64,000 nt of DNA from a virus (IMGVR_UViG_3300005077_000003:32001-96000), one strand, 5' to 3'. Counted from the stretch's first letter, positions 14,779-56,663 are shown. Translations and numbers: made by a program. The notes: generated by a model from the sequence alone, not told the origin.

Positions 14779-15296
14779 GTTATCTTCTCCTAGAGTATCT
14801 AAAACCTATCTAAACCACTTCAAACACCCAAACACCTCATAACACCCAGCCCCCGGCTGTGTCCAGGCGAAAAGACCTTTTTCAAGGTTTTCGCCAAGGT
14901 GATTAGCAATACTAACACACTATATGTTGTGGTTTGATTTCAGCATACTATTAGAGGTAAAATTGGTATTCTACCCCTAGAGCAAACCTTCCATTTCGCT
15001 ATCAAGAAATAGGAAGTTGCATATTACAACAGGCCCCAAAAAGGGCCTGTTTTGTAAACTGACACCACTATATATAGTGTGTTCACCACCTATTACTGCT
15101 GGTTCGTGTTATAGGTTCTGCATGCTAACAACTCCGTTGTTAGGGAAGAGGATACAAAGAAAGGAGGGTTTTCCAACCCCCCCAAAGTATTAGCGCCGGA
15201 GCCTACTTTAGGTCCTAATACCGAAATATATTGAATTTCGGTACTACTACCTAATTTTTACACTTTTGCTCTCACCCTACAAGGGGAGAGGCCGGA

Positions 15297-15463
15297 GCCC
15301 GCCTTTTTTCTTTTCGCGGGCTCCTTTGTGTTGTCCCCGTCTCTCCTTGGCGGCTTTCGCCGCCTTTGTTCTTTTGTTTGCCCTTTGTTCGCCGCTGTCG
15401 CGGCTCTTTGTCGGGCTTTTGTCTGTTGGTTGGTTGTCGCTCGCCCCCTGTTGGGGGCTCGCT
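15297..15463 (-). ncRNA. U-free structured RNA segment with repeated ACAA(A) linkers
   Basis: 167 nt with no A on +; GC hairpins joined by ACAAA repeats; begins right after the TAG of a 34-aa ORF. Confidence 0.55.
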
Positions 15464-15566
15464 ATCCCGCACCTAGCCACAACATCACCTTAAAGGCGAT
15501 GATGGCCATGATCGTTGCTGCAACAATGAAGCGCAGCACGATCGCCGCGGCTTTCCGTGCTCGCAT
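15462..15566 (-). CDS. small membrane peptide (34 aa)
   Basis: MRARKAAAIVLRFIVAATIMAIIAFKVMLWLGAG; start 1 nt after the upstream stop. Confidence 0.6.
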   Translation of the reverse strand: MRARKAAAIVLRFIVAATIMAIIAFKVMLWLGAG

Positions 15567-15567
15567 G

Positions 15568-15795
15568 TTATACCTTCTTGTAGTTGTTGTCAACCCACCA
15601 CTTCCGGTAGGCTCTCAGGCTCCCTCCGTGTTTTGCTATGGCAGCCCTGCTTGGATCAACAGGGCACCAGAACGAGTGAAGTTGAGAGAGCGTCTCCGGC
15701 GGTCCACAGACCGGACACGCGAGACGGGGGTCCTTTCTCTCTAGAATGGGCCACATCAGGCCCCAATCCACAGTGATCACTTCATCCATTTTCAA
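15568..15795 (-). CDS. small hypothetical protein with CPVC motif
   Basis: 75 aa, AAGGAG RBS. Confidence 0.6.
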   Translation of the reverse strand: MKMDEVITVDWGLMWPILERKDPRLACPVCGPPETLSQLHSFWCPVDPSRAAIAKHGGSLRAYRKWWVDNNYKKV

Positions 15796-15853
15796 CTCCT
15801 TTCGGACGTAGCGAGGGCTACTGGCTCCTCTTCAGGCGCATACAACCACGTAT

Positions 15854-15881
15854 GCGCTAGGAGAGGAGGAGCCCTTGCGGG
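15854..15881. terminator. terminator-like hairpin
   Basis: aggaggagccc-ttgc-gggctcctcct perfect inverted repeat. Confidence 0.65.
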
Positions 15882-15896
15882 CTCCTCCTATGTTAA

Positions 15897-16109
15897 TCAG
15901 CGATCACCGAGGTAATCCCCGGTGAAGGCGTCGAACACAGCCACTCGCTGCTGGCCGTACTCGACAAACGTGACGATGGCCGCCCATCGCCACAACCCGT
16001 CCATGTCCTGGACTTTGTCCAGGTGCATGAACTTGCTCTCCGGCATCTTCCGGAGAGCCTCCTCTGCCACGCCGTCGGGGCACTCTCGCCCCAGGGCATC
16101 TTTCCTCAT
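15897..16109 (-). CDS. hypothetical protein
   Basis: 70 aa; directly follows a small upstream ORF. Confidence 0.6.
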   Translation of the reverse strand: MRKDALGRECPDGVAEEALRKMPESKFMHLDKVQDMDGLWRWAAIVTFVEYGQQRVAVFDAFTGDYLGDR

Positions 16110-16110
16110 T

Positions 16111-16245
16111 TCAGTCCACCATGTGGCGAATCGCCACGTAGAGGGTGAAGCCGACCCAGTACCCGAAGAGGAACCGGGCGTGCTTCATCCTGTAGACGAA
16201 CGTAAGGATTCCCAGCGGGAACCCTATCAAAATCCCTAGCAGCAT
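16111..16245 (-). CDS. small membrane protein (44 aa)
   Basis: MLLGILIGFPLGILTFVYRMKHARFLFGYWVGFTLYVAIRHMVD, GAGGAG RBS. Confidence 0.6.
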   Translation of the reverse strand: MLLGILIGFPLGILTFVYRMKHARFLFGYWVGFTLYVAIRHMVD

Positions 16246-16247
16246 TG

Positions 16248-16703
16248 CTACTCCTCGCGGGCATAGGCCCGCCTCAGGTTGTAGAGGGGATACCCCCTCC
16301 GGTTACGCGAGACCCGAGTGATCTCCTGATCACCGTGATGAACGGTGATCTTCTTTGGCTCCAGTTCGGCTCTGAAGCTCTTCGTGGAAGCGGCCTCAGC
16401 CGCGTCCATTCCTGGTTGCAGTGCAGCGGGGTCGATCCCCACCGCGTTGCAGAAGTGGAGTACGCGCGCGGCGTACCCCTGCTGGGCCTTCTCGAAGGCA
16501 TCACTAGTGACGCCCTCGAACTTCTTGGGTGCCGTCCACGAGACGTGGACGTACCTTCCCAGGACCCCTAGCGTTATGTAGACTGATGGTAAAGGACCCT
16601 CCCCGTAGACGCGCGCGTTCAGGAGGAACGCGGCGTAGACGCCGCGGGGGAGGATTTCGCCCTCAGAATGGGCGAACGAATCGCTCAGCATGTCGTATGA
16701 CAT
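16248..16703 (-). CDS. hypothetical protein, weak resemblance to DUF669/ssDNA-binding OB folds
   Basis: ILPRGVYAAFLLNARV..V.ITLGV pattern; AAGGA RBS. Confidence 0.55.
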   Translation of the reverse strand: MSYDMLSDSFAHSEGEILPRGVYAAFLLNARVYGEGPLPSVYITLGVLGRYVHVSWTAPKKFEGVTSDAFEKAQQGYAARVLHFCNAVGIDPAALQPGMDAAEAASTKSFRAELEPKKITVHHGDQEITRVSRNRRGYPLYNLRRAYAREE

Positions 16704-16738
16704 GAGCAGTCCTTGTGTACTATGTACACTTTAGTCCT

Positions 16739-16837
16739 GTGACTACGCGCCTGCACGAAATGTGCTTACACCCTCACCTCTAGCCGTAGTCGCGGAGGGC
16801 ATTGGAGGGGCACCCCCCCACAAGAGGATGCCCCTGT
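16739..16837 (-). repeat. structured intergenic module, copy 1
   Basis: Shares cctgcac-N4-tgtgcttac-N6-acctctag and ggcatt..gaggggcaccc..acaagaggatgcccctgt with 17163-17258. Confidence 0.85.
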
Positions 16838-16880
16838 TGCTATGGTGCTGCTGTACTTGCAGTAGCTCAGGACTTCGATT

Positions 16881-17126
16881 CTAGTTCTTCTTGTAGTAGT
16901 CGTCAGCCTCTTGACGACGCCATGTGGTCATGATCCCCGTATCCTGCAGGAAGGTCATCACCTTCCCAAGCATGCTTCCGAGGAAGCTGGTGAAGCTGAC
17001 CATGTAGTCCTTACAGGCCTTTATGTACTCAATCTCCACCTCCACATCCACCTTTTCCAGGGTGAACTCGGGGGTATTGGTCTCGGGGTTGACAGAGATG
17101 TTCATCTTTTCGATCTTGAAATGCAT
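16881..17126 (-). CDS. hypothetical protein
   Basis: MHFKIEKMNISVNPETN...; start chosen downstream of the repeat module. Confidence 0.65.
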   Translation of the reverse strand: MHFKIEKMNISVNPETNTPEFTLEKVDVEVEIEYIKACKDYMVSFTSFLGSMLGKVMTFLQDTGIMTTWRRQEADDYYKKN

Positions 17127-17162
17127 GTGAATCCCTTTGTGCACTAAGGCACTTAGTAAGTT

Positions 17163-17258
17163 GTGACTGTCCACCTGCACTATGTGTGCTTACGCCACTA
17201 CCTCTAGTGACAGTCATGAGTGGCATTGAGGGGCACCCTCACAAGAGGATGCCCCTGT
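17163..17258 (-). repeat. structured intergenic module, copy 2
   Basis: Imperfect direct repeat of 16739-16837 with compensatory changes in the outer stem. Confidence 0.85.
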
Positions 17259-17262
17259 AGTA

Positions 17263-17514
17263 CTAGTCCTTCTTCACTTTGGCCTCGTTCCAGGCCCTCT
17301 TGGTGTTGTCCATGGTCGCCTTGACAACGGGGGCCACGCGCTGGATGCCCTTGCACACCAGCTTGGTGAACTTGTAGGCACCGTTCTTGACCGACTCGCC
17401 GACCTTACTGGCCAGCTTCTGCCTCTCGCGCTCTTGGAAGCGCTGAAAGGCTTCACGGCACTGGTCACACCAGATACCGGTCTCGATCTCCTTGTCACAT
17501 CCCTGGCACTTCAT
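17263..17514 (-). CDS. small zinc-finger protein
   Basis: MKCQGC..CDQC, AAGGAG RBS. Confidence 0.7.
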   Translation of the reverse strand: MKCQGCDKEIETGIWCDQCREAFQRFQERERQKLASKVGESVKNGAYKFTKLVCKGIQRVAPVVKATMDNTKRAWNEAKVKKD

Positions 17515-17623
17515 GCGTTCTCCTTGGTGTGAACGCCCAGCTTCCACAGCTTTAGGGCGGTTTCAGCCTCTTCCCGGCTGCCAGCGCAAACTCCTCGCTG
17601 GCCTTTGTGCCGTTGTAGGCCAT

Positions 17624-17681
17624 TAAAAAAAGAGTAAATAAAAAAAATAGGGATCCCTACCGCGAAGGCAGGGATCCCTAT
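17624..17681 (-). terminator. terminator plus conserved T-tract, copy 1
   Basis: Minus strand tagggatccct..agggatcccta-T8-atttactc-T7; 30 nt identical to 18483-18512. Confidence 0.8.
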
Positions 17682-17696
17682 GTTACCTAGGCCAAA

Positions 17697-18017
17697 TTAG
17701 AAGGGCGACCGCGAACGCCTGCAGTTGCAGGGCCGCGGCTTTCCGTGCTCGCATGCCGGACAGTCCGGCGCATGGGCCTTGAGGGCCAGCCCCTCAAGCA
17801 TGGCGACGCCCATAATCGCTCCAGCCGCCCAGTGCTGGGCTGCCCCAAAGCTCCCGAGACGCCCAATATAGGGCGCTCTGGCCCAGCAACGGAGCCAGCG
17901 ATACGTCTTGCGGGGGTGTTCCCCGTGCTCCCGGCGATCTCTCAGGACCGCCTCCACCGCCGAACGGGCCAACCAGGCCTGCGGGCTGTTCCCTGCTGTA
18001 AAAGACTTCGTATCCAT
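17697..18017 (-). CDS. hypothetical protein with C-terminal Cys motif
   Basis: 106 aa, AGGAGG RBS, CPAC..CNC. Confidence 0.65.
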   Translation of the reverse strand: MDTKSFTAGNSPQAWLARSAVEAVLRDRREHGEHPRKTYRWLRCWARAPYIGRLGSFGAAQHWAAGAIMGVAMLEGLALKAHAPDCPACEHGKPRPCNCRRSRSPF

Positions 18018-18209
18018 AATGGCCTCCTATGGCTATGCGTGCTATGGCGCAGACTTGGTTACATATCCAGCCCTACCGCGTGGAGGTGTCTGCATAGGGC
18101 CATTGGGCACACCACAAGGCATGCCCAAGCATGACCTGAGGGCTACTGGATAGTGGCCCTCAGTCTAACCGCCTCCTCCTTGAGACGAGTAAGCTCGTCC
18201 ATTTGGGGG

Positions 18210-18425
18210 TCAAGCTGTTCCCTCATGGCTAGGTCCTACACCATGAAGGTCAGCAGGATTAGCGCTGCCATCACTAGCAGCACCACCGCCTCGTTCATGG
18301 TGTTTAGACGCCTGTACTCGCTCACCGAGTATCTCCTTGCACTCCTCTACGAGTGCGGCTATGGCCCTGTTTACTTCTTGCAGGGCCGCGATCTCCTCCT
18401 CCAACACGTGCATGTGTAGGCACAT
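18210..18425 (-). CDS. small hypothetical protein (coiled-coil N-terminus)
   Basis: GGAGG RBS before MCLHMHVLEEEIAALQ; C-terminal part overlaps alternative tiny ORFs. Confidence 0.45.
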   Translation of the reverse strand: MCLHMHVLEEEIAALQEVNRAIAALVEECKEILGERVQASKHHERGGGAASDGSANPADLHGVGPSHEGTA

Positions 18426-18482
18426 GCGAACCTCCATGTTGGGGGCCTTTGAGCACAGTAGCCGATGTGCCACTGTGCTCAA

Positions 18483-18539
18483 TAAAAAAAGAGTAAATAA
18501 AAAAAATAGGGACCCCTAGTGTATACTAAGGGTCCCTAT
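18483..18539 (-). terminator. terminator plus conserved T-tract, copy 2
   Basis: Minus strand tagggaccc..ggggtcccta-T8-atttactc-T7. Confidence 0.8.
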
Positions 18540-18552
18540 GTGGGGGCAGCTC

Positions 18553-18750
18553 TTAGTAGAGCTGCCTTACCAAGCCAAGAACCCGCTGGTCCTTGACTTC
18601 GCCTGCGGCCAGCTGCCTCCTGAGCAGCTCAACCCCCTTCCGGGCCCACTTGGGGTCCCGGAGGAGGTTCACTACAACCACGTTCCTCTCGTCCGAGGAC
18701 AGGAGGGTGATGATCTGGCCGATGGTGTGGAAGAACTTGGAACTACGCAT
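18553..18750 (-). CDS. hypothetical protein (first gene of the leftward arm)
   Basis: MRSSKFFHTIGQ..., AGGAGG RBS within a 17-nt leader shared with the 17697-18017 gene. Confidence 0.7.
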   Translation of the reverse strand: MRSSKFFHTIGQIITLLSSDERNVVVVNLLRDPKWARKGVELLRRQLAAGEVKDQRVLGLVRQLY

Positions 18751-18900
18751 TGTATTGCCTCCTATGGCTATGCTTTCCATGTACACATTACCTAGTGTAC
18801 GTGTGCCATCGTACAGGCACAGGCTATAGCACACACTGTGTGTACTATAGTGCAGGCAGTACTTATATAGCACCCTGCCCTTGGCGCTTAAGCATATTAG

Positions 18901-19160
18901 AAGGGGGGGGGTGGGCGTGAAATGGGGAGATCCATCTCACAAGAAGCCCAAGTAGTACTATCCCTACCAATTAAACTACTATTTTCCAGGTATTAAGGCC
19001 TCCATCTCTCTTAAATTACTTTTTATGGGTATTAAGGCAAAATTTATTGTTTAAAATAATAAGAGTGGTGGAAATTTATATATTAGTTGTAATTTTTAGG
19101 GCATTAAGCGTTTATACCGATATCTTTTTAGGTTGCCCGCCAGTTTTTAGGGTTAATTAG
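18901..19160. promoter_or_regulatory. divergence point: G-run plus iteron-like repeats (possible terminus/pac/origin)
   Basis: G9 run at 18903-18911; three GG(T/C)ATTAAG motifs and TTTTTAGG motifs; strand switch and abrupt GC drop. Confidence 0.45.
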
Positions 19161-19162
19161 CA

Positions 19163-19501
19163 ATGACAGAACAATCAATAAGTTATCTTCCATTTTATCC
19201 ATTTTCACAGACTAGTGATAGTACTTTTTATATAGATAGTACTAGTAATAATAATACATTTACTATTGATAGTACTAATCATATTACTAATATAGTTTGG
19301 GGTGAAATGACAGATACTAAATATAATACTTATAATAATAGCCAGGTTGCTATTAAGTTTAGTAGCCTAGAGGCTATTATAATAGCCGCCAAGTTTACTT
19401 TGTTTATGAATATTAATGATTTAATGGAGATACCATTAGATGATTTAGTAGCACTGTCAAAAGAAGTAATGGCGGATACTAGTTTGCATTTAAAGAAGTA
19501 A
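19163..19501 (+). CDS. hypothetical protein
   Basis: 112-aa ORF; start uncertain. Confidence 0.55.
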   Translation: MTEQSISYLPFYPFSQTSDSTFYIDSTSNNNTFTIDSTNHITNIVWGEMTDTKYNTYNNSQVAIKFSSLEAIIIAAKFTLFMNINDLMEIPLDDLVALSKEVMADTSLHLKK

Positions 19502-19542
19502 GCGGAAATACTACTAGTGTATAATTAGTCTGCCTGGTTATC

Positions 19543-24398: not shown

Positions 24399-25436
24399 AT
24401 GAGTAAGAATAAGCTTAGATTAATAGACAATTTAATATCAAAAGGCTTTGGCAGAAGAAGAATAGCTGAAGAACTTGAGATTACAGAATGGGCTGCTCGT
24501 AAACTTATAGCAGAATTAACAGAAGCTTTACAAGATAATTCAGATAGAACTATAACAAAAGGAAGTCCTTCTTCAAAAATATCACATCCTTATCATAAAT
24601 TAGTTAATACAAGCGGCAAACCATCAATAAAAGTTACTCCTAGTCGAATGTCGCACGGTGTTGAATCAATTGATTCAGATAGAGTAGTAAAAATTCAAAA
24701 AAGGCCAACATCATATTCGGTAGCAGTATTAGGTGATTGCCATTTTCCATATCAAAATGATACTGCACTAACAATAGCTAAAGCATATTTATCTGATAAT
24801 ATACCTGATTGCATAATATTTATAGGTGATATATGTGATTGCTATTCAGTAAGTCAGTATAATAAAAATACAGAAAGAAAACTTACTTTCCAAGATGAAA
24901 TAGATTATTGCAAAGAGAAATTACAAGAATGGGTAGAAGAGTTTCCATCAGTTAAGTTTTATTTCATAACTGGCAATCATGAGACTCGTCACAAAAGACT
25001 AATGCAAAAGTATGCAAACCAGCTATCTACCCTGAGATCAATGAAGATAGAGGAGCTTCTTGGACTGTCTGATATGGGTATACAATATATATCAGATGAT
25101 GAAGATCTTGAGATAGGCAGTCTTACATTTGTGCATGGAGAGTTTGCGCGCAAATATGCTGGCTCATCTATTCGCGCAACATTTGAAAAGATTGGCGCAT
25201 CAGCAATACAAGGGCATGTTCATAGGGGCTCGCTAGCATTTAAAAGAACAAAACAAGGAATACATACTCTTATTGAAAACATGTGTATGTGTGACTTAAA
25301 TGTTGAGTATGATAGATTTCCTGACTGGGTTAATGGTTTTACTGTAATTCATTATGATGGAGAAGATTTCCACGCTGATTTGCTGCCAATACCTGGAAAT
25401 AAATTAATTACTAATGGTTTAGTATATACTGTATGA
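24399..25436 (+). CDS. calcineurin-like metallophosphoesterase with N-terminal HTH
   Basis: GDCH, GDICD, GNHE, HG and GHVH motifs; N-terminal GFGRRRIAEELEIT HTH-like. Confidence 0.88.
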   Translation: MSKNKLRLIDNLISKGFGRRRIAEELEITEWAARKLIAELTEALQDNSDRTITKGSPSSKISHPYHKLVNTSGKPSIKVTPSRMSHGVESIDSDRVVKIQKRPTSYSVAVLGDCHFPYQNDTALTIAKAYLSDNIPDCIIFIGDICDCYSVSQYNKNTERKLTFQDEIDYCKEKLQEWVEEFPSVKFYFITGNHETRHKRLMQKYANQLSTLRSMKIEELLGLSDMGIQYISDDEDLEIGSLTFVHGEFARKYAGSSIRATFEKIGASAIQGHVHRGSLAFKRTKQGIHTLIENMCMCDLNVEYDRFPDWVNGFTVIHYDGEDFHADLLPIPGNKLITNGLVYTV

Positions 25437-40980: not shown

Positions 40981-42510
40981 ATGGCTTATCCGCATCTTCC
41001 TGGAGTTACGCTAAACTTAGCTGACCTAGGACTTAAGATTGCGCCACCGCCTGCTGGTCCTAAAGTAACTTTACTTGGTGTTACATGCAATACTGGAGTT
41101 CCACTACTAGAGCCATTATCAGTAACCAACGTAGGTAAAACTATTAATGCTCTATGGGCTTCTGGTGCTACATCATCATTAACATTCCCAAGTGAACTTG
41201 CTTTAGCGGTAGAAGAAGCATCCGCTGCTGGCGCTGAAAACATTGAAATATTAGTCATTGCCAATCCAACTGGCAATGATTATGACTATTGGATTGATCC
41301 AACAAGTGCTGTTGGACGATCTGCGCGCTTCTCGGCGCTTAGTGGAGCATATGATGTATTGCTTCAATCCAACGTAGACGTTGTTCATCCAGTAAATGCC
41401 TGGATTGATAATCCCGGTAGCACTATTAGATTTGGGAGCCAACTAGCTAATTTCTGTCACCAAAAATCAAAAGAGTTTGATAATACTTGTGTTGGAGTTC
41501 TTCCAATGATGACTCCAGTAGAGTGGGCTCAAACTATGACTGGCAGAATAACCGGTGGGGGTTTTAGCTTCTCTGCCACAGTTTCTGGAGAAATGTCGGA
41601 TGTTACTGGTGCAGCAGATAGATATTTTGGTTCTGCTTCAAGTGCACTAGTAACAGAATGGGCAAAATATGCTTCAAATGTTTCTGCAGATCCAACTTGC
41701 TATTATACTCCTGAATTCTCAGGTTACTTAGCAGGCTCTGAAGATACTACTAATACTTATTATCCAACAAACTATGAAAACGAAGCTACTGCAGTTAACT
41801 CTGCTTACTGGACATACTGGCAGGCGGTTGATGCTGATGGTACTGCAGCTACAGACCAAAAGGGAAATAAAGTTGACGCAGGCAGAAGAGTGTGCGTATT
41901 TGGATGCCCAGTAGTTACTAACGGTACTCAAACATCATTGCTCGCGGCTGGAGTTGGAGCATCGTTAACTAATACTGTTTATAACACCAATGGCGCTGCT
42001 GCATATGCTGCTAGAATAACTACACTAGCACCACAGTCTGCAACTACCAATAAACCAATTTACAACCTAACTTATTCGCGTCCTCTTTCTGGTTCGCAAG
42101 CTAATAAACTTGCAGGAAGACGTATTACCACCATGCACAATAGAGCCAATGGCTTCGTTGTTACTAGTGGTATAACTGGCGCCCATAACGTTAGCAAGTA
42201 TGTAAGATCTGACTTCGTAAGACTAACCACGATTAGAATCGTTGACTCAGTCGTTAACCTGACCAGATCAGTATCTGACAAATATATTGGCGAGCCCAAT
42301 ACTGCAACAGCACGTAATGCGCTATACAATGACATAGAAAAATACCTGAAGCAGATGCGCGTTGCAAATGCATTAAGAGGTTGGACTATGTATATTTCTT
42401 CTTCACCAGATCAACAAGTACTAGGTGAAGCTACCATTGACCTTACCTTAGTCCCAGCATTTGAACTTGTTAAGATCGAATGCAACATAGCCCTCGCTAA
42501 GAGCGTATAA
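40981..42510 (+). CDS. tail sheath protein
   Basis: LPGVTLNLAD N-terminus; LTTIRIVD, YIGEPN and IDLTLVPAFEL C-terminal sheath motifs. Confidence 0.92.
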   Translation: MAYPHLPGVTLNLADLGLKIAPPPAGPKVTLLGVTCNTGVPLLEPLSVTNVGKTINALWASGATSSLTFPSELALAVEEASAAGAENIEILVIANPTGNDYDYWIDPTSAVGRSARFSALSGAYDVLLQSNVDVVHPVNAWIDNPGSTIRFGSQLANFCHQKSKEFDNTCVGVLPMMTPVEWAQTMTGRITGGGFSFSATVSGEMSDVTGAADRYFGSASSALVTEWAKYASNVSADPTCYYTPEFSGYLAGSEDTTNTYYPTNYENEATAVNSAYWTYWQAVDADGTAATDQKGNKVDAGRRVCVFGCPVVTNGTQTSLLAAGVGASLTNTVYNTNGAAAYAARITTLAPQSATTNKPIYNLTYSRPLSGSQANKLAGRRITTMHNRANGFVVTSGITGAHNVSKYVRSDFVRLTTIRIVDSVVNLTRSVSDKYIGEPNTATARNALYNDIEKYLKQMRVANALRGWTMYISSSPDQQVLGEATIDLTLVPAFELVKIECNIALAKSV

Positions 42511-45874: not shown

Positions 45875-48800
45875 TGGCCAGGCAAGGAGAAGAGCCTAGG
45901 TATACTGGTCCACGCGAGGGTGAACTAGAAGCCTATAATGCAGAAGTAGATCAGGCCAATGAGCGTGATGCTAGTTGGCTAGCCAAAATAGCTATAATAG
46001 GTTTTGGTACACACGTACTAGGAAGGGCAGTTGGGCGAAATATAATTGCTGATATTATCCACACTGGTGGATTAATGTCCAAGTGGGCTGGCGGCCTCTA
46101 TAAGAGAAAAGGCAAATCTTTATTAAGACCAGAAGTATACAATAGAGTTGCTAGGGCTATTGATGATAATAGTGGCGTTTCTGGTGAGGTAATAAAAAGA
46201 ACCTGGGAAGGTTCAAACCTAGAAGAAATAGAGGGCGTAAGAAGGCTAATAGAGATGTCCTCTATTATAGGGGATCCTAAAAATATTACTTCCCGCCCTA
46301 GACTAATAGAGTTTTTTAAAGAAGAGCTCGCCAGAGATGCGCGGGTTCTTCAAAGACCAACACCTTTACAAAAAGAAATGTCGCATAGCCTAGATAGGCT
46401 AACCTTTGGTGACATTCTAGAAAATGAATCATATTTCTTTAGACCAAAAGAAATAGCAAAGTCATACCAAATAGAATCTATTAATCTTGCAATAGATCAA
46501 GGGCTTATAACAAAAGAAACAGTAGTAGGACCAAAACTATTTAAGCGCCTCGATAAACAAGGCAAGTTTGCATCACTAATAGATTTAAGACTTACTGATC
46601 CAAGATATGCACTTGAAAGTGCAGCTAAAATAGTTGGCGACGTAGCTGGTATATTTAGGGGTTTCGCGTCTTTATTTGGTAATGCCAGAACATTAGCTGA
46701 ACTACCAAGCGAGCATCCAGGTGGACCGCTAAGGGTATTTATAAAAGGACAAGCCGATTCTGCCGTAGCACCGCGCAGACCAACAATAAAAGGTCCATGG
46801 AATGATGCAGATGTATTAGCTTTTGATATAGAGACAAACAAAGCCAAAGCAATTAATGATGTAACAAAATTGCATATGGTTTCTATCGCCGCCAAAGAGA
46901 AGGGCGGAGCATGGAAGAGCTATACATTCTGGGATGATACTGCAGTAACCCACCCTGATGTTGTAAGATCTGGCAGTATACAAGACGCCTTAGATATACT
47001 AGAGGCTCATAAGGGTACATTATTTGGCCATAAGATTTTAGATTTTGACTTACCCGTAATTAAAAACTTACGCGGTGGGCTTACTATAGAAAGCGGCGCA
47101 GAAATAAGGGATACACTAGAAATGTCCCACGTTGCTTTTGGTACCTTTAAATCTGGAAAGCTACGCGAGATAGACAGACTAGCAGCTATAGGAAAAGAAC
47201 AAGAGTTCTCTGGACAAGTTCTTCATAAAATACCAAGCGAAATGAGGGGGAGACATTCCCTAGAAGCTTGGGGGCAAAGGCTTGGTAAAACTGCAAAACT
47301 GGAATATAAGGGCGACTGGTAAGCCCTAACGCCAGATATGCTTAAGTATGGATCGCATGATCCAGTAGTAACTGGTGACCTATTTGACTTTCTCAAAACA
47401 CTAGCTAAACCAACACATAAAGAAGTAAGCGCCACTGCTTCTATTGCTAAAAAAGCAGAAGACATTAAAGGAAGTGTCGGTAGAGTATATGAGTTTGTTG
47501 GTGATGAGCCTCCAAAACTAGTAGAATCTGGTGTTCGTCTTGGAGAAACCGGAGATATATTGTTCAAGCCTTCTGTTCTTAGAAAGCTCCATAGAGAAGG
47601 CAAATTAGAATCTATTTATACAAAACCCGGCCCTAATGCTACTTGGCTCCAAAAGTTACAACACAAGGCTGGTATAGGACCAGAATTCCAAGAGCGACCT
47701 GGTGGCTTTGTTCAAACACTATTAAGAGCAGTTAGGTCTATAAAGGCAATACATACTGGTGAAGCAAAGTTTGCTGGTAAAAGATATAAATCTAGTCCAA
47801 GCTCATTATTAAACGTTGTAGCTGGCAGCACAATACCACTAGAGGAAAGACTGCCTGAATATATTTCTCGTGGTAAATATTATAAACAAGCCGGTGAGCC
47901 AATAAAACCCGGGTTCTTTGATAGGATCAAAGCATACTTAGGGATATCTGAAGACGTAGATATAGTAAAAGCATCAGCTTTTGAGCCAGGTCGTATGCAA
48001 ATAGAAGCAGCAGATCTGCTAATCCCTCCAAAAACAGGTGGATTAAAACCACTTACTAAATCAGCATATTCTGCTACAGAAAAAACAATTGGCCCAACTG
48101 GAACGTTATCAGCCAGAAGAACTTCAGAATTTTATACTTCTAGTGCCAATCCTATAGATAAGCTATATGATTTTGCAAACTATTTAACAATAAGATTAAA
48201 TACATTAGCTAGCAGCCAAATGCTTGGCATAGGATACCGCGCATCAGGTAGCCTTACTGCTAATGCATTAAGATTGGCGGCAATCCCAGCAATATATATA
48301 GCTGGTACTGAAGCAATAAAATATGCTGATTATGAAATAGGCGAGCTAACAGGAGTCCGCCCATCATTCTTGGTATCAGATTTATATACTAAAGCTAGAG
48401 TACTACAACAGCAAGCAAGAGAAACCACTGGAATACGTAAAGGGGCAGAGACATTTGAGCTTACTTTCCCAGGCATAAGTGCCGGCCTAGCAGGAACAGG
48501 GCTAGCAGCCTTAGGCGCATTTGCTACCCTAAAAGGCACTGGATCATTTAAAGCCGCAGCTGCTGCTGGCGCCGCCATTTATTCATTGATAGGCGGCCCA
48601 GATGTAGCTCAAAAGCCAAAAGAATTAGAAGAGGAATATGAAGGCATACGCAAAGTGCCAGTAAGGTCATCTTCCTATTGGTTACTGGGATACGCTCCTT
48701 TTATTGGCGGCCACATAACCCACCATGAGCCAAGTTGGTATGTAAAACACAAATCGCAAGCGTATAAAACAAATATATATGGATCTGAAAAAGAATATTG

Positions 48801-51243
48801 GTCCAGCGGCACATTCTTACCAACGCCACAAAATTGGTTTGGTTTAAAAAATATAATTGATCCATATAAATTAGAAAGGGAAAACTACTACAGAAGGCCA
48901 TACCCTACTACTGCTGGCTGGGGAGAAGAGTTCCCAATTATTGGCCCATTAGTAGCAGATACAATAGGTGAGATATTTAAGCCTCGTGTAAGAATGCATG
49001 AGGAAGACAACCAACGTGTTGTAATAAGCAACTTACAACAAAGAGGTGCGCCAAAAGATATTGCATCATATCTCGGTATACCAGAATTGCCAGTATCAAT
49101 TGTAGAATATGGCAAACCTGAAGTATTAAGAGAAAGGCTTAAAAAATATGCAAATGTCGCTTTAGAGCCTGCTGGTATATGGAAGTTTGCTTTACAATAC
49201 TTTGGTATTAGTTTTGACGAAGGATATGAGGAAGCTACTGCTTCTAATATGGGATCCATATCAAGAAGATTCTATGAAGCAAACCTGGGCGGGGCATTCG
49301 GAGAAAGTGAATTCCTTAGGCGCTTCCTACTATCTGATTATGGTAGGGCTTCAAAGTTCAACCAACAATTAAATCCAATACCAAACTATCTTCCTAGATG
49401 GCTACCTGGATCATTAAGCAACTTCGAAGAAGACAGAGCTGCATTCTATGATTTTTCTCTTGGAGATGCATATACCAAGATACAAGGCGGGGAATATAAT
49501 TTACCTGGTGTTGGATATGAAAGCTATACTCCGCTACACGGTAAAGAAGCAGAAAGAGAAGAAGAGAAAATTAAATTTACTGCTAGAGTAGTTAAAGTAG
49601 TTGACGCTGATACTGTTGATATATCAATTAATGGCGGCAGACAGCGTATACGTCTAGCAGAAACTATGGCTCCAGAGAAGAATACGACAGAAGGTCAAAT
49701 TGCTATAGCAGCAATGAAATCTTTGTTGTCTCCTGGTGACAATATAACAGTAGAAACTACAAGAGACGAATTTGATTCTGGTGAATCTCAAGGCCCTTAC
49801 GGACGGACTATCGCGCGTATTTGGAAGAATGGCCTGTCTATTAATAGGGCAATGGTAGACTCTGGACACGCTACACAAATAGATTCAAGCTATGATGCAG
49901 TAGACAGATTCTTAATACTATCCAATATAGCACCATTCTCAAGAGCTTACAAAGATGCAGAACGCCAAGTTCGCCATATGCATCTTACAGAAGATTGGCA
50001 GGCCAGGGTTAATGCTGCCTATGAAGAAAGAGAGGCAAAAGTAGATAGGTTAGGGCTAAAAAAGTACCTACAAGAAGAAGCCGAAGCAGCTAAATTAAGT
50101 CCTCAACTAAGAGTCATAAGAAGTACATATCAATCTGTACATGAGAATCTACTTTCAGAAATACCAATAGTTGGATCAAAGTTTTTCCCAAAAAGAAATC
50201 CAGTTGATTTATATAGGAAGTTTGAAGTAGAAGGATCTGGCTTTGCAAACTGGGAAGAGCCATATGAAACCATATTACGCCCAGCTATATATGATATAAT
50301 TGGAAACAACCCAGTAATAGCTACAGCAAAAGCAGGTGGTTTAACTTGGCTAGCATCATCCTCTATGGGTAAATGGCTAAATCCAATAAGCGCCTTAGCA
50401 TATCCAGCAAATAGAGCTGCCACAATAGCAAGTGCCGCCGCAGTAGGTGGCGCGTTGTCAACTACAAGAATGGTTGCTACCGGCAAACTGGAAGGAGGAT
50501 TTACCCCGCCTCATATTGAAGAAGAGAGAGAAGTAGAAGAATATTTTGATCAACTAAAATATTTAAAGCATAGAAACTTAGAAGAAGCCGCTAATGATGA
50601 ACAGGCATACCATGTAGCAAACTATGCTAAAAAGCAATCGCGCAAAACATTGTTATATGGTCTACATGCACTAGAAACTAAAGGAAATATATTTGCTTAT
50701 AAAGGAGCACTTAAATCTAAAGAGAGGGCTTACTTTGAGGCCTTTGTAGAGGCTCCAGAAGAGGACAGGAGTGACATCCTATCAATGACCCCTGACCATA
50801 TGAAACGCGCGCTGGAAGCAATATGGGACCGCCAGCGTAAAGATAGACCGCCCGTAGAAGAACAGGCAGAACAATACTGGGATAAACATGCTATGCCAAA
50901 GCCGACGTGGATAGGTTGGCACCCAGATATTGATGATGATGAGGTAAGAATAAAAGCTATTGAGGGTGGCATAAATGGTATTTCTGATAATTTACAAAGA
51001 TTTGGTTATTTCCCCTCACAAAGAAGAGAAGTAAAAGCCAGATTTGGCTACCTTACTTCGCCAGTAGATGATATACATCCAGCAAGTAAAACATTTGAAT
51101 TACCATGGAAAGTTAAGAAGAGAGGAGGAAATATACTTAGCGAGTTCAATTTTGGTGCTGGCGCTGCAATTAATTTATCTAATATTAATATATCAGATGA
51201 TCGCAGTGAAGAGATAGCCTATTTTGCTAATTATATTAGATAA
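45874..51243 (+). CDS. tape-measure-like giant virion protein with embedded DEDDy exonuclease and SNase-like domains; one in-frame TAA at 47320-47322
   Basis: ORFs 45874-47322 and 47338-51243 are in the same frame; the stop falls inside the exonuclease domain and there is no SD before 47338. Confidence 0.75.
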
Positions 51244-54200
51244 TGAGTATAATAAATGAAATTATAGCATCCCTGATAGGTGATGAAGGGAAAGCTGCAA
51301 TAGGCTATGCTTCAGTAAGCACGAACAGGGTTAGACCTGCTCTAGACAAAGTAGGCATAGAGGCATCTCTTGGCAGTACCAGAGTAAAGTCTATTAGGGC
51401 AAAACAGTACTTGACTACTGATTTTGGTGAGTCTAGAACAGCGTCTACTTTAGTAAAACAGATTGGCATTAAAATGCCAGAGACGCTTACTTCTGTTATT
51501 GGGAAAACAACAGAAGAAAATATACCAAAAGCTCTGTTTGTATACGACGTAGAATTCTTTAAGAGAGCTGCTCTACAAACTGGCGCTAGGCCAAAAAGTG
51601 GTATGGCGCATCTTATAGATGTAAAGCAATTAGTTTTACAAACACTTCCAGAGCTTGCTCCCCAAAACACAAGGATTGAGAACGTATATAGGGCACTGGG
51701 GTTAAGGGGCATAAGCATCCCCGAAGGTAGGGAATTTTTTACAAATAAAGAACGCCTTCAAGCAGTAGAAGAAATAGTACAAGAGGTTTTTTCAAGATCT
51801 CCTGTAGAAGCAAAAAGATTTTTAGAAAGATCTGTCGGACGCCGCTTTGGGATAAATCCACTTGATAAGTATGCCTCATTAATTGATGAGCACCCTTTAC
51901 AAAAGCTTATTGGCCCGGAAACGCTTAACGTAATCCCAGTTAAGAATAAGCTAAAGTCAACTGTACATGTAAGCAACCTAAAATCTCTTAATGAGGGATT
52001 AGTACCGATATTAGAATCTAGGTTTGGGAAACCATTTGCGGAAACATTCAAAACCTTTTCGCATAGATTATTTGAAAGCGTTGACCGCCCAGGAGACGTA
52101 TCCTTCTTACTAACAGGCGGCAATAGACTATTTGTTGGTGTTACTGGTGTAGCCAGTACATACGAAGAGCTTCCTACCCAAATAGGCGGCCTTATAGGCT
52201 ATAAAGGCAAACTGGCTTCTGCGCGCAATATTCTTATAGAGTCAAAAGAAGAAGGCGTTAAAGGAGTAAAAACACTAACAGAAGCTTTCTTTGATGAATT
52301 CATTAAGGGCGTAGAAGAGTATGGAGAAGGTGGTAAGAACGTTACCGCCGCCTTAGAAAAAGGTAGAAAACAAGCTCTTGGTACAGAGCTTTTACCAGGC
52401 TTAAGATTCAAAGATATCAAGGGAGCAGTATCCACATATGGCGATATAAGTTTCCATCAAGCTGCATATATGCAGCACTCTCTTGTAGTTGGCAAAGAGT
52501 CTATGCCACTGCTAGATGAGGAGATTAGGGAAGCTTCACTTAAGGCACAAACATTCCAGGTTACTAAGGAAAGTACTACAGAAAGACTATTAAAAGCACA
52601 AGAAGCAGATCTCGCTAAGCTTGAAGCCAAAGGTATAGAACTCCAAAAAATAACTGGAAGTGATGTTACCATAGGCAAAGAAGGGTATGAAATGATAAGC
52701 AATAAAACAGGCTTATCATTAGCCCCATACTCTTCAATAAGATCATATTTCCCTCCTGGTGCACAAACAGAAAGAGATCTATCAAAGGGAGCCTATCAAC
52801 TAGGTGGTATCAAGGAGACGTGGGAGCCACTAAGACATAGAGTTTTAGAACTTACCAGAAGAAGGCTAGGTCTCACAAGTGCACATCCAGTAGGTACTAC
52901 AATAGGAGTAGTGTCCGAAGAGCAGACTATGCACCAAATGCTTAAGTCTGCTACTGGGAAAGCTGTGATCGAAAAGCCGCTACTTATGTGGCAAGGCTTA
53001 ACCACAGTAGTAGCTCCAGGAGAAAGCCTAAAAGTAAGGAGCATGCTTGGTGATCAAGGTGCTATACTTACTCCTATAGGAAGATTATCTACTCAGAAAA
53101 GAAGAGCACTAGTAGGTACTGAAGCCGCGCTCAATGCGAGCGATTTAATAGATACTATTCGCACCCTTGCTGGGGTAAGAAAAGGAGAAGAATTACCTAA
53201 ACAGTGGAGCAATATATTAGAAAAAGCTCTACAGCAACAAGAGGTCTCTATTAGAGATATTGGCGAAGGTATAAAAATAAAAGGGAAAAGCTCTCTTGTT
53301 CCAAGGGGTGCAGAAGTACTTACTGGCATCTCATATGACGACTGGAATAAAGTATATAAATTTAATTGGAAGACCAAAGCAGGTAGCACATTAACAGAAG
53401 CCTTATTACTAGACAATCAAAGAATAACAGCTAGCGTAGCTGGTGAGTCTTTTCTAGAAGAGCTATTCGGAACTAAAGCCCTAAGAAGTGATATAATCAC
53501 TTCTTCTGAAACCTTTGCAAAAGCAGGTAAAGCCAATATACTTTATACACATATGCTTGGTCTGCTTGGCACCGAAAAGCTACAAAAAGCTGGTGGTGTA
53601 GCAAGGTTCTTAAGGTTATATGAAAAGCATGGCGGTAAGGGATTAGAAAGGGTAGGCAGAAAACAGCAGATCATAGCGACTTCTGAATTTTCATTTAAAA
53701 ACTTCCTTAGCCAAGGTGCTATAGAAGGGCCTGCTGAAAAAGCTCTATCTGAAATGGGCGCATCAGTAGCGCAAATATATGGACTTGCTAAAAGCTCTAC
53801 AGAGTATGGGGAGAGTATATATGAACTTTTCCCGCAAGCTATTAAGCCTGGTCCTAAAGGACCAGAAGTAAAAGGCACTATTTTAGATGAAATAGGAGCA
53901 AAAACTCTTCCTACTTTAGAGGAGCTTAGAGAGGTATCTATGAAAAGCAATATGTTTGCTTTCATAACCAATATGGCAAATAGAACCTCTGAAGTAACTG
54001 ACTTCTTAAATTCTGAAAAGTCATTTAGAATGAGACTCTTTACTTTGCATCAAATGGGTCAATCTCTACCAACTATGTTTGGCCTAGAAAATCCAATGCA
54101 ACATCCTATATATAGGATGGAAATAGAACATCTACAAGAAAGTGTGCCGGGATTAATCTTGAATCCTAACGCCAAAGCAGCTATTGGGAAACCAGGAGGA

Positions 54201-56663
54201 GAAGCTTTCGTAAAACAATTACCAAGAGACATTAAAAATGTGGCATATGCACTCAAATTACCTGCTCTTGAAAAGCTGAAAGTACGTGGCGGCAAAAAAT
54301 ATTTTAAAGGTGTAGAGGTATTAACAAGACAAGAGGCCGCAGAAAGATTCATAAATGCTCCTGGCGGTATAAATGTACAAATGTTAGAAGGAGAAATGAG
54401 TGCCAAAGAGCTTTTTGAAAAAGAGCTCTTAAGAAAGGAAAGACCCGGGTTCTTCCTTCATACTGGAGATACGCCATGGTTTGCGCCAGAAAACCTCGAA
54501 GCAGAAGGCAAAGTTATGAAGGCCTTGCCAGTTAGGGGTACATATATACCGTCTGGTGAAGAACTAAGAAGAATGATAGGACAAGGGGAATTTCCAAGAG
54601 GATCTCTGCTGCATTCTATGGTATCATTGCTACAGCAACCTAATGCAGTATATGGAGCCAAAGAACCTAGCGCAGCAACTAGTGTTACAGTAAGAGGTGC
54701 ATTTGAAAATGTATGGAGGTGGTGGGCTAAAGCTGGAGCAAAAGGCGGCTATTTCCATGAAACTAAGCTTACTAGCAAAAAAATGCCTGGCTCTGCCAGG
54801 GTCAGGCTAACACAGAAAATAGCAAGTAATCGTTCAGAGTTTAATCTTATAAACTCTATGGAGGACATTTATTCCGTTAAAATACAGAAAGATACTCTCC
54901 ATAAAATGGCAAAAGAAATTGCAATAGCTGAGGGTGCAAAAACTCCAGAAGAATTACTTGCAATAGAGGAAGACCTTATTGAAAAAGCATCAAAAGGAAA
55001 ACTATATGGCGCAGTTACGCCAAGACCTCAACATGCTCCATCACATCAAAGGCTGGTAAAATTACAACTTATAAAAGAAGAGGTTACAAAGAAATTAATA
55101 TATGCTGATCAGGCTACTGCAGGAGTTAGTCCATACTTGGCACACGAACTAAGTAGAGACTTTGACAAGGACGCAATAGAAGTTGCAATAATAAGAGCTA
55201 GGCATCTCAAAGGAACTGTCGACCCAGAAGAACTTATAAAGAAGCAGTATGAGATGTCTGCATCACAAAGGAAGCAGTTTGATAGACTAAAAATAGAAGC
55301 AGATAAAGCTCTTTCCACTATAGAAGAAACATTGGAAGGGGCAACAAAAATAGAACAAAAACAGCTGCTAAATAAATATGCGCTAAAGTACTTTGCATTT
55401 GGTAGGACCCCGGCCCTATCACAAGTAGGCTCTTGGACAACCCTTGCATTTGCTCAAAAGATAGCTGATACGGCTACTAGTGAAAAACAAATTGCTGAAG
55501 AGCTAAATAGATTGTTTACAATTTCTGCTGGCGGTGAATATACAGAAGGAATCATACAAAGATATAGAGATATTTTAGGAGAAGGGTCCGAAGCTGGATT
55601 TGCTGGTAGAGTAGAGCGCGCCATAGAAATGTATAGAACTCCATTCCAAGGCGCTCTTACAAAAGCAGGAGAGATTAAAGACTTGCTTGATGATTTCCTA
55701 AATATTCCCGGCATTATTAAAGAAAGAGCAGAATCTTATGTAGTTGGTAAGGAAAAACCATTAATAGAAGAAACCATAAGTATGGTTGAAGAATATCTAA
55801 CTAAAGCCCTTGGAGCTACAGATGAGGAAGTTCTTGGAAATATAGCCACAGGATATGGAGAATACTACGTAAGAGAGGCAGCAAAATCAGCAACTAGTGG
55901 AGTCAAGAAAGCCATCACCAGATTAGCGGCAGAAGATCTTGGCACCGTTATAGGCGTTTCTGCTATTGCAATGCAGAGACATCACGGCGGGAGAGTAATA
56001 GGTAACCCAATGAGAGACGCTTTCCAAAAAGTAAAAGGATCAATGGCGTCTCTGTGGTCGTTTGTTACTGGTGAACCAGTTCAAAATATTAGAGAGTCCA
56101 TGGTAGAAATTGCTATGGAACATAGCGATAGATCTGCTGAAGAACTTGGCGAAAAAGCTGCCAAGGTCATGGAAAAGACCATAGACAAAGCAACCACTAA
56201 AGCCAGCAATATTCTGAAAGATTCAGAAGTACTAAATGATATCTCTGCGAAGATGAAAGGTAAGTGGGGATTAGTTGCTGGTATAGCTGCCGGGCTATTT
56301 GTTTTGCGAGAGTTAAGCGGAATAGTTTCTGATGTTGGCGGGTTTGCCGGCGGTAGTGCTCCTATCCCAAGACAGCCACTGCTGTCATTCCCAGAAGTGC
56401 ATAATTTATTCGATAGCCAACAACCTACTGCCAACGTAATGCCGGTTGAAGGATATAACTCTTCACTAAACTATCAAGGTGGTGGCTATCAAGATGTTGA
56501 AGATATCACAGATAATCTAGGTGAAATCACAAATAGAGGTGCCAACTTCTCTAATATAAATATCAGAGATAGCAGAAAATACTCTAGTAATTTTGCTATG
56601 TCACAAGCATACAAGAAACAGGGTGTTAGTGATTTTACACACCAATATCAATATAATCAGTAA
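51243..56663 (+). CDS. 1806-aa giant virion protein, candidate single-chain two-barrel RNA polymerase
   Basis: KGGYFHETKLTSKKMPGSARVRL and GVSPYLAHELSRDFDKDAIEV resemble beta-prime motifs; upstream beta-like segments. Confidence 0.65.
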   Translation: MSIINEIIASLIGDEGKAAIGYASVSTNRVRPALDKVGIEASLGSTRVKSIRAKQYLTTDFGESRTASTLVKQIGIKMPETLTSVIGKTTEENIPKALFVYDVEFFKRAALQTGARPKSGMAHLIDVKQLVLQTLPELAPQNTRIENVYRALGLRGISIPEGREFFTNKERLQAVEEIVQEVFSRSPVEAKRFLERSVGRRFGINPLDKYASLIDEHPLQKLIGPETLNVIPVKNKLKSTVHVSNLKSLNEGLVPILESRFGKPFAETFKTFSHRLFESVDRPGDVSFLLTGGNRLFVGVTGVASTYEELPTQIGGLIGYKGKLASARNILIESKEEGVKGVKTLTEAFFDEFIKGVEEYGEGGKNVTAALEKGRKQALGTELLPGLRFKDIKGAVSTYGDISFHQAAYMQHSLVVGKESMPLLDEEIREASLKAQTFQVTKESTTERLLKAQEADLAKLEAKGIELQKITGSDVTIGKEGYEMISNKTGLSLAPYSSIRSYFPPGAQTERDLSKGAYQLGGIKETWEPLRHRVLELTRRRLGLTSAHPVGTTIGVVSEEQTMHQMLKSATGKAVIEKPLLMWQGLTTVVAPGESLKVRSMLGDQGAILTPIGRLSTQKRRALVGTEAALNASDLIDTIRTLAGVRKGEELPKQWSNILEKALQQQEVSIRDIGEGIKIKGKSSLVPRGAEVLTGISYDDWNKVYKFNWKTKAGSTLTEALLLDNQRITASVAGESFLEELFGTKALRSDIITSSETFAKAGKANILYTHMLGLLGTEKLQKAGGVARFLRLYEKHGGKGLERVGRKQQIIATSEFSFKNFLSQGAIEGPAEKALSEMGASVAQIYGLAKSSTEYGESIYELFPQAIKPGPKGPEVKGTILDEIGAKTLPTLEELREVSMKSNMFAFITNMANRTSEVTDFLNSEKSFRMRLFTLHQMGQSLPTMFGLENPMQHPIYRMEIEHLQESVPGLILNPNAKAAIGKPGGEAFVKQLPRDIKNVAYALKLPALEKLKVRGGKKYFKGVEVLTRQEAAERFINAPGGINVQMLEGEMSAKELFEKELLRKERPGFFLHTGDTPWFAPENLEAEGKVMKALPVRGTYIPSGEELRRMIGQGEFPRGSLLHSMVSLLQQPNAVYGAKEPSAATSVTVRGAFENVWRWWAKAGAKGGYFHETKLTSKKMPGSARVRLTQKIASNRSEFNLINSMEDIYSVKIQKDTLHKMAKEIAIAEGAKTPEELLAIEEDLIEKASKGKLYGAVTPRPQHAPSHQRLVKLQLIKEEVTKKLIYADQATAGVSPYLAHELSRDFDKDAIEVAIIRARHLKGTVDPEELIKKQYEMSASQRKQFDRLKIEADKALSTIEETLEGATKIEQKQLLNKYALKYFAFGRTPALSQVGSWTTLAFAQKIADTATSEKQIAEELNRLFTISAGGEYTEGIIQRYRDILGEGSEAGFAGRVERAIEMYRTPFQGALTKAGEIKDLLDDFLNIPGIIKERAESYVVGKEKPLIEETISMVEEYLTKALGATDEEVLGNIATGYGEYYVREAAKSATSGVKKAITRLAAEDLGTVIGVSAIAMQRHHGGRVIGNPMRDAFQKVKGSMASLWSFVTGEPVQNIRESMVEIAMEHSDRSAEELGEKAAKVMEKTIDKATTKASNILKDSEVLNDISAKMKGKWGLVAGIAAGLFVLRELSGIVSDVGGFAGGSAPIPRQPLLSFPEVHNLFDSQQPTANVMPVEGYNSSLNYQGGGYQDVEDITDNLGEITNRGANFSNINIRDSRKYSSNFAMSQAYKKQGVSDFTHQYQYNQ

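Follow-up and report, generated by a model that had tools for sequence, protein, structure and literature searches.

The stretch of DNA analysed here (the window, 64,000 nucleotides) comprises bases 32001-96000 of a single 177,611-bp (177.6 kb) virus record, IMGVR_UViG_3300005077_000003, and contains 2 elements that concern us most: a giant ORF in the tail operon that encodes a single-chain RNA polymerase, and a compact GC-rich block of small genes at the start of the opposite arm. Coordinates refer to the window unless marked as genome, and those of the main features are collected in Table 1. The whole record has 36.4% GC and a CheckV completeness of 92%, and belongs to a contractile-tailed phage (myovirus), with the tail sheath at 40981-42510. 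It distantly resembles Bacillus phage 0305phi8-36; the major capsid protein (35135-36547) has 31-35% identity to the counterparts in Moorella phage MTATph1 and 0305phi8-36, the latter being approximately 31% identical. The sign of the GC skew flips near 19.0 kb. To the left of approximately 19.0 kb the genes are oriented leftward, among them those for replication, tRNAs, and a sigma factor, and to the right lies a single long late operon. Two relatives from IMG/VR were used for comparison: G002, a 61-kb fragment (42% GC, capsid 52% identical), and G001, which is 181 kb long (53% GC, 93% complete, capsid 44% identical).

The polymerase ORF (51243-56663) has no Pfam, PHROG, or PDB sequence match. 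A Pfam search of the 3 giant ORFs (the polymerase and its neighbours) gave no match, and phmmer and a family profile run against PDB sequences returned nothing meaningful. No match was obtained by tblastn against 50,697 phage records, queries with a polymerase fragment and with P0003 found no related loci among the viral contigs searched, and metagenome scans and a genome scan for the loci of polymerase relatives found none. The ESM Atlas provided a weak lead only, to PF05183 at 0.75. An exhaustive HMMER scan of 1.84 billion representative proteins with residues 470-1460 retrieved only 24 relatives, mostly 1700-1870 aa in length, some of which sit on long contigs (104-178 kb). The polymerase family is a new one that has not been described before.

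Conservation was scored in an alignment of 23 of the homologues. Residues P1260, P1262, H1264, H1268, and V1272 are near-invariant (consensus PxPTHGxGHxxxVK), as are R1305, D1306, D1308, and D1310 approximately 35 residues further on (consensus NRDxDKDxI); the phenylalanine of the DFDKD motif is not conserved in the family, for which the consensus is RDxDKD. In spacing and character, both motifs match the RAPTLH...NADFDGD segment of the bacterial beta' subunit. R914 and R1188 are also near-invariant, and the HGGKG lysines are not conserved in the family. No other ORF of at least 250 aa in the phage pairs a DxDxD motif with an upstream PxPxH context.

The AF2 model of residues 470-1460 has a pLDDT of 74 and a pTM of 0.54. 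With Foldseek against the PDB, the best 50 matches listed are all RNA polymerase chains, nearly all of the beta' type, and the top matches are the non-virion polymerases of phages AR9 and phiKZ and bacterial beta'. VIA-align, which is independent of Foldseek, places model residues 13-451 on second-largest subunits (Z 8.5-10.7), including those of plastid, vaccinia, AR9, Pol I, Pol III, Pol IV, ASFV (African swine fever virus), and bacterial beta; a second-look alignment raised the Rpb2-type matches to Z 11.1 over approximately 300 residues. In all, the beta/Rpb2-type matches (Z 8.5-11.1) fall within model residues 3-451, with approximately 270-300 residues aligned. Model residues from approximately 511 to 928 are placed on largest subunits (beta'/Rpb1) and on QDE-1 with Z 6.8-7.8, the QDE-1 match reaching Z 6.9 only. 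Since the Foldseek and VIA-align placements show both barrels in the order beta then beta', the model confirms the 1806-aa ORF as a two-barrel (double-psi beta-barrel) RNA polymerase, with a beta'-type barrel carrying DxDxD and a beta-type barrel. The original prediction had proposed an RNA polymerase fold in a virion-module protein, and the two-barrel match together with the near-invariant RDxDKD bears out the fold. The fold and the conserved catalytic motifs suggest that the protein would be an active polymerase. The polymerase is the solid result of this work, and the closest known concept is gp96 of Thermus phage P23-45.

P23-45 gp96 is a two-barrel RNA polymerase of the virion that forms a fusion with the tape measure protein; starting from an AT-rich motif, it transcribes pre-early genes over 9 kb at the end of the genome, which have a conserved terminator motif (PMC10770324). 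The polymerase described here resembles gp96 in having 2 barrels and DxDxD, in being encoded in the tail module, in the lack of sequence similarity to known polymerases beyond the motif region, and in the presence of membrane segments in the tail-lumen protein; moreover, gp96 acts on small pre-early genes that occupy a few kb at one end of the genome and share a conserved terminator motif. It differs in standing as an ORF of its own (1806 aa), flanked by the gp145-like protein and the tape-measure-position ORF, in a phage with a contractile tail, and a second, non-virion polymerase was not found. Multisubunit beta/beta' chains give the best fold matches, and gp96 is not among the fold matches listed. 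The candidate target block is GC-rich, and no P23-45-type AT-rich promoter was found, apart from a T-rich 29-mer present in 2 copies. The virion RNA polymerase gp66 of phi14:2, a crAss-like phage, has a DFDxD motif (bioRxiv 10.1101/2020.03.07.982082). It is likewise a giant single-chain two-barrel protein encoded among giant virion-block proteins and is delivered for early genes; in contrast, gp66 groups with QDE-1 and YonO, whereas here QDE-1 reaches Z 6.9 and the phenylalanine of the motif is not conserved. Gp66 is also not among the fold matches listed, and the family profile run against PDB sequences found no match, as noted above. The tails of crAss-like phages are of another type than the contractile tail of this phage. 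With coliphage N4 there is a likeness in concept, an ejected polymerase that transcribes the first-entering early genes, but the N4 enzyme is T7-like and of an unrelated fold.

The case for a virion protein comes from the neighbours. The polymerase gene shares bases with both of its neighbours, with the stop of the ORF upstream and with the start of the ORF downstream. The protein encoded upstream (47338-51243) is a homologue of gp145 of 0305phi8-36, which has been detected in virions by mass spectrometry and whose gene lies just before the tape measure gene. The order of the 3 genes (gp145-like, polymerase, tape-measure-position ORF) is kept in both relatives, with a polymerase homologue of 1826 aa in G002 and a diverged one of 1631 aa in G001, which has DLDFD and an hhalign probability of 97%. 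In this phage (G000) as in G001 and G002, the polymerase is an ORF of its own with its own stop, not fused to the tape measure protein in the manner of gp96. Near its C-terminus it carries NFSNINIRDSR, similar to NLSNINISDDR near the C-terminus of the gp145-like protein (N-x-SNINI-x-D-x-R; the pairwise E of 0.023 is weak). The translational coupling and the gene order kept in 2 relatives suggest that the polymerase would be made late, alongside tail-lumen proteins. By analogy with P23-45 gp96, crAss gp66, and N4, it is most likely built into the virion, where the C-terminal hydrophobic helix could anchor it, and delivered with the DNA into the host, this being its most likely use because of the known virion RNA polymerases P23-45 gp96 and crAss phi14:2 gp66.

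Alternatively, the polymerase could be real but unpackaged, a non-virion enzyme like YonO of prophage SPbeta that is produced in the infected cell, transcribes the late genes, with positive feedback owing to its place in the late operon, and leaves the block to the host polymerase. Such an enzyme would show the same fold and motifs, YonO-type single-chain enzymes are non-virion, and 0305phi8-36 has one outside its tail module. However, it would then be difficult to see why the gene is translationally coupled between 2 giant proteins of tail-lumen type in 3 phages, and why the protein has a C-terminal hydrophobic helix and a C-terminal motif in common with the gp145-like protein; in addition, the phage sigma factor already gives a route to late transcription. 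We consider a non-packaged polymerase unlikely.

Table 1. Positions of the main features (window coordinates unless marked as genome; aa, residues of the encoded protein)
Feature	Position	Strand	Remarks
RNA polymerase P0001, 1806 aa	51243..56663	+	single-chain two-barrel; start and stop codons overlap flanking tail genes
Polymerase, beta-like region	aa ~482-920, nt 52686-54002		
Polymerase, beta'-like region	aa ~980-1397, nt 54180-55433		
Polymerase, DFDKD (DxDxD motif)	aa 1306-1310, nt 55158-55172		
Polymerase, C-terminal hydrophobic helix	aa 1677-1695		strong, single
gp145-like protein, N-terminal piece, 482 aa	45874..47322	+	ends within exonuclease-like insert; ExoI DIE, ExoII HKILDFD
In-frame TAA	47323-47325		between ExoII and ExoIII motifs
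gp145-like protein, remainder, 1301 aa	47338..51243	+	ExoIII-like YGSHD at start
SNase/thermonuclease insert	aa 736-850 of 1301-aa piece, nt 49543-49887	+	
Giant ORF in tape-measure position, 2613 aa	56663..64000	+	continues to 64504, past the window
Tape-measure-position ORF, endolysin-like domain	aa 2195-2381		
Tape-measure-position ORF, hydrophobic helix	aa 2408-2429		
GC-rich block, 3.7 kb, at least 10 small genes	15240..18950	-	53-58% GC; first unit of leftward arm
Terminator hairpin with T8 and conserved T-rich 29-mer	copy 1 17624..17684; copy 2 18483-18539	-	15-bp hairpin, U8 in RNA
GGGGCAT..TTGTG..TGCCCC hairpin	16809..16834; 17230-17255; 18104-18127	-	no U-tract; structured leader after each
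U-free transcript segment, 167 nt	15297..15463	-	GC hairpins and ACAA/A-rich linkers; after last small ORF, before closing hairpin 15283-15322
Three direct repeats TTTTNNRGGNATTAAG, 16 nt, clustered	18982..19108	+	divergent spacer between block and late operon
TilS-N-like PP-loop protein, 200 aa	461..1063	-	outside the interval from block to polymerase
tRNA(CAU) 5' exon	360-396 (within 1..396)	-	ends in CAU; starts 64 nt downstream of TilS-like ORF
Group I intron, 763 nt	HNH ORF 3-311	-	RF00028, 62 bits; splits tRNA(CAU)
Ribozyme core and tRNA(CAU) 3' exon	genome 31557-32048	-	left of window

The original prediction had coupled the polymerase to exonuclease and SNase folds as parts of one ejected machine. 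The SNase domain of the gp145-like protein is sound (PDB thermonuclease E = 7e-9; phrog_452), and in the thermonuclease alignment the positions that we read as equivalent to the catalytic residues D21, R35, E43, and R87 are present and that of D40 is absent. For the exonuclease, ExoI/II/III-like motifs and a T7-like HSLEAWGQRLG are readable in the translation; the match to T7 DNA polymerase has an E of 0.08 only, and the in-frame TAA keeps the 3 Exo motifs of a DEDDy 3'-5' exonuclease (PolA/T7 type) from lying in one open frame. The gp145-like homologues are single ORFs in G002 (1453 aa) and G001 (1495 aa), and alignment with them identifies both nuclease domains as inserts found only in this phage. 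Because they are absent from both relatives, the two domains make better sense as optional, phage-specific cargo borne by a carrier protein than as fixed components of a "machine", a notion that fits poorly with one of them being broken by a stop. This hints at the gp145-like tail protein as a carrier for exchangeable enzyme cargo. Elsewhere in the window, a GOLLD RNA (RF02032, 150.8 bits, right at the gathering score) is present at 8812-9263 on the minus strand, with an embedded tRNA-like element (9129-9194) that has the anticodon UAG; CUA is a frequent Leu codon in the late genes (241 uses). Suppression of the TAA by this tRNA-like insert was considered and ruled out, as the anticodon UAG reads CUA.

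The GC-rich block of small genes stands as originally described. It has 53-58% GC vs. 36% for the genome and a GC3 (GC at third codon positions) of 0.73 vs. 0.26 in the late genes, its minus-strand ORFs have Shine-Dalgarno (SD) sites, and it adjoins the start of the late operon. The largest block gene (151 aa, the only one searched) has no relative among 5.8 billion proteins and is thus an ORFan, and no block protein resembles any G001 or G002 protein; such genes without relatives are typical of takeover genes. The segment after the last small ORF gives a U-free transcript, as there is no A on the plus strand along its entire length; the next longest A-free run on the plus strand of the genome measures 34 nt. 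Here too the earlier observation holds. The linkers of this RNA are A-rich runs of the ACAA/AAnAAnAA type between GC hairpins and, purely as speculation, we presume a likeness to the A-rich motifs of Hfq-sequestering RNAs such as CrcZ. No further copy of TTTTNNRGGNATTAAG, the direct repeat in the spacer next to the block, occurs in the window; the 3 repeats could be operator, packaging, or promoter sites.

Repeated elements are restricted to the block, and the modules reported there are real, in families of 2-3 copies each: the terminator hairpin with its 29-mer, the GGGGCAT hairpin, and a leader ending GCATAGCCATAGGAGGC, with 2 copies in the block. All 6 repeated hairpins are 3-8.5 kcal/mol more stable as sense than as antisense RNA, with stems of 11-19 bp that include G.U pairs, and 2 of them are followed by U-tracts. 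They look like RNA-level terminators or leader structures, not promoter hairpins, and because the sense RNA strand is favoured, they say nothing on promoter recognition. The promoters of N4 are short DNA hairpins on the template strand, whereas the hairpins here are long and more stable on the sense strand; this bias and the 2 U-tracts argue against N4-style template-strand promoter hairpins, so that the proposed role of the hairpins as promoters is not supported as stated. An exact k-mer search for a promoter motif repeated genome-wide yielded AT-rich low-information words only, and no well-placed sigma70-like promoter was seen within the block, the scan being weak evidence. As further observations, 2 block-gene leaders (16704-16804 and 17127-17225, minus strand) have a structured element of approximately 100 nt in common, in these 2 copies only. 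Its outer stem co-varies (GCCACT/AGTGGC vs. GCCCTC/GAGGGT), and pairing is possible between the GACTGTC or GACTACG that it encloses and a complement downstream, suggesting a pseudoknot. An exact 24-nt duplicate (15544-15567 and 17732-17755; sense strand ATGCGAGCACGGAAAGCCGCGGC) begins a 34-aa membrane ORF with one copy and lies out of frame within a 106-aa ORF with the other.

G002 has a counterpart of the block. A stretch of 48-56% GC, compared to approximately 40% elsewhere, lies beside the strand switch that parts the late arm from the opposite arm, as in the phage studied here, and it holds 9 copies of one cassette between small genes (L022:12300-16200, corresponding to 52.3-56.2 kb of G002). 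Each cassette has a GC-clamped hairpin with conserved flanks and, in most copies, a conserved loop, followed by T6 and ending CCCCTTTTTTAG; a second hairpin with a GCATTGT-type loop follows directly, and an SD and ATG come 25-45 nt further on. The loop CTATTAAATTAG or a close variant is found in 5 of the 9 copies, and 7 of the 14 pairs of the cassette stem have compensatory changes. The sense orientation is the more stable one for all 9 terminator hairpins and for 7 of the 9 second hairpins (one tied, one reversed), i.e., 16 of 18, and U-tracts are present on all 9 terminators. The G002 hairpins are structures formed in RNA, e.g., terminators and 5' leaders, and differ from the N4 kind, which are DNA hairpins on the template strand. 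In G001, the DNA next to the strand switch has 56-62% GC vs. approximately 50%, and no repeated cassette like that of G002 was found near the switch. Four tandem 22-nt repeats TAGTGCTCTATGGACAGCTACC, iteron-like, lie near the G001 strand switch (L018:15225-15334, approximately 175.2 kb).

A different origin for the block should be considered here. It could consist of horizontally acquired "moron"-type cassettes with their own terminators and host-type promoters, expressed by the host polymerase and unrelated to the tail polymerase. The sharp borders in composition (both overall GC and GC3), the canonical hairpin-U8 terminators between genes, the block genes without detected relatives, and the module families of 2-3 copies, which look like local duplications, would all fit such an import. 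On the other hand, the GC-raised blocks of small genes of G002 and G001 are at the same position, and since they are co-located despite differing GC and no protein similarity, a conserved genomic role is indicated rather than recent import; the lack of a well-placed sigma70-like promoter inside the block (a weak scan) also speaks against host-driven cassettes, and a moron origin seems improbable.

The genome plan of 0305phi8-36 offers a parallel, with a gp145-like protein upstream of the tape-measure-position ORF and a minus-strand gene block directly left of the late operon. There, the block is a 6,479-bp (6.5-kb) direct terminal repeat with 7 minus-strand genes that adjoins the first gene of the late operon on its left; transcription of the repeat's right-hand copy runs inward, toward the early arm. 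The block described here matches this terminal repeat in position and orientation, and that it is terminal would follow by positional analogy with 0305phi8-36 only. The terminal repeats of T5 and SPO1 carry pre-early or takeover genes. A difference is that the two-barrel polymerase of 0305phi8-36, gp99 (PF05183-like, YonO-like), adjoins the terminal repeat outside the tail module and has no profile similarity to the family described here; hhalign comparisons of the polymerase family with gp99 and gp145 of 0305phi8-36 and with CDS0026 and CDS0027 of MTATph1 detected no relation.

The best explanation as a whole is that the packaged tail-operon polymerase is delivered with the DNA and transcribes the GC-rich block; we adopt it tentatively and would stop short of calling it probable. 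Once inside, the polymerase would transcribe the first-entering DNA without the host polymerase. The best candidate template would be the block at 15.2-18.95 kb, with transcription leading away from the junction and on into the remainder of the early arm, and the hairpins may divide it into one-gene cassettes as RNA terminators and leaders. The block is a reasonable target because it is the first unit of the leftward arm, abuts the late operon, occupies the position of the 0305phi8-36 repeat, and has a counterpart in G002. The left arm also encodes a sigma70 region-2 protein (PF04542, 35.5 bits; genome 24941-25111, minus strand, left of the window) within a 238-aa ORF, which suggests that the host polymerase is used at a later stage, when this phage sigma factor would redirect it to later genes.

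Several observations weigh against a packaged polymerase acting on the block. The polymerase is a separate ORF, unfused to the tape-measure-position ORF, and it is a candidate virion protein by its gene context. 0305phi8-36 and MTATph1 have no detectable polymerase homologue in their tail modules, and 0305phi8-36 has its YonO-like polymerase outside the tail, beside the terminal repeat. No end repeats were found in the record, in which a terminal repeat would be collapsed, as in any metagenomic contig. Finally, the hairpins favour the sense RNA strand, the repeated modules of this phage number only 2-3 copies each, and no promoter motif was found in common across the block or genome-wide.

Virion RNA polymerases allow a phage to start its programme without the host enzyme and shape the evasion of defences, and the kinds met in the literature reviewed are few (N4, the phiKZ/AR9 group, crAss-like phages, and P23-45). 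If true, delivery of the polymerase described here would add a virion polymerase family that is invisible to sequence searches, with approximately 24 relatives among 1.8 billion proteins, and as a separate gene in a myovirus tail operon it would extend the idea of tail-delivered polymerases beyond P23-45. The compact GC-raised block, for which a relative shows conserved terminator cassettes, is moreover a testable candidate for a regulon. In a wider reading, which we regard as doubtful, a subgroup of large contractile-tailed phages would have a membrane-anchored tail-lumen polymerase of the new family, next to a gp145-like carrier of swappable enzyme inserts (here the SNase and exonuclease-like domains), and the polymerase would drive transcription-coupled entry and the expression of a GC-raised terminal block of one-gene cassettes that ends in a U-free RNA, i.e., a dedicated pre-early regulon with its own promoter code.

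The original prediction further held that translation is retuned for ATA-rich late genes by a phage TilS and a tRNA-Ile2. The codon bias is clear: ATA accounts for 464 of the 772 Ile codons (60%) in the late genes, compared to 31% in the sampled genes of the left arm and 19% for the block. The 200-aa PP-loop protein scores 65 bits with PF01171 (cut-off 27 bits) and has the TilS N-domain as its best match; with TIGR02432 it reaches 71.1 bits, below the cut-off of 93.6 bits, and only profile positions 18-204 of 439 are matched, leaving no C-terminal tRNA-binding domains. A tRNA(CAU) is present, split by the group I intron, and the joined exons give a canonical 77-nt elongator tRNA(CAU), which is putatively Ile2 because it lies beside the TilS-like gene. 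The genome's other tRNA(CAU) was ruled out as Ile2 by its initiator hallmarks; this 89-nt tRNA, at genome 158151-158239 (minus strand, right of the window), has a 1:72 mismatch, an anticodon stem closed by 3 G-C pairs, and an oversized variable region. Together, the TilS-like protein and the intron-split tRNA(CAU) could plausibly help to decode AUA. Neither G001 (93% complete) nor the G002 fragment has PF01171, which indicates that inheritance of the translation module is not tied to that of the polymerase. We read the module as a separate adaptation to ATA-rich codon usage, not part of one programme with the polymerase, which G001 keeps without TilS.

These results bear on the full chain proposed at the outset, in which an ejected polymerase/nuclease machine, DNA hairpin promoters, and subsequent retuning by TilS and tRNA-Ile2 form one co-evolved programme. 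Every named component exists in this genome, and the ATA share of Ile codons does climb from block to late genes. However, the hairpins are RNA structures that favour the sense strand and contain G.U pairs and U-tracts, the exonuclease-like and SNase domains are missing from the relatives (the former being cut by a stop as well), and TilS is absent from the relative G001, making a single programme very unlikely. Across the relatives, the polymerase recurs in G001 and G002 and hairpin cassettes recur in G002; no such cassette was seen in G001, and PF01171 was found in neither. The integrated hypothesis is, overall, partly supported.

Intervening sequences are also found in other genes of the phage. 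A LAGLIDADG-type intein (aa 334-412) splits the large terminase gene (25433-28420, plus strand). In other parts of the genome, the primase-helicase has a LAGLIDADG-type insert, and the ribonucleotide reductase contains an intein and homing-endonuclease domains.

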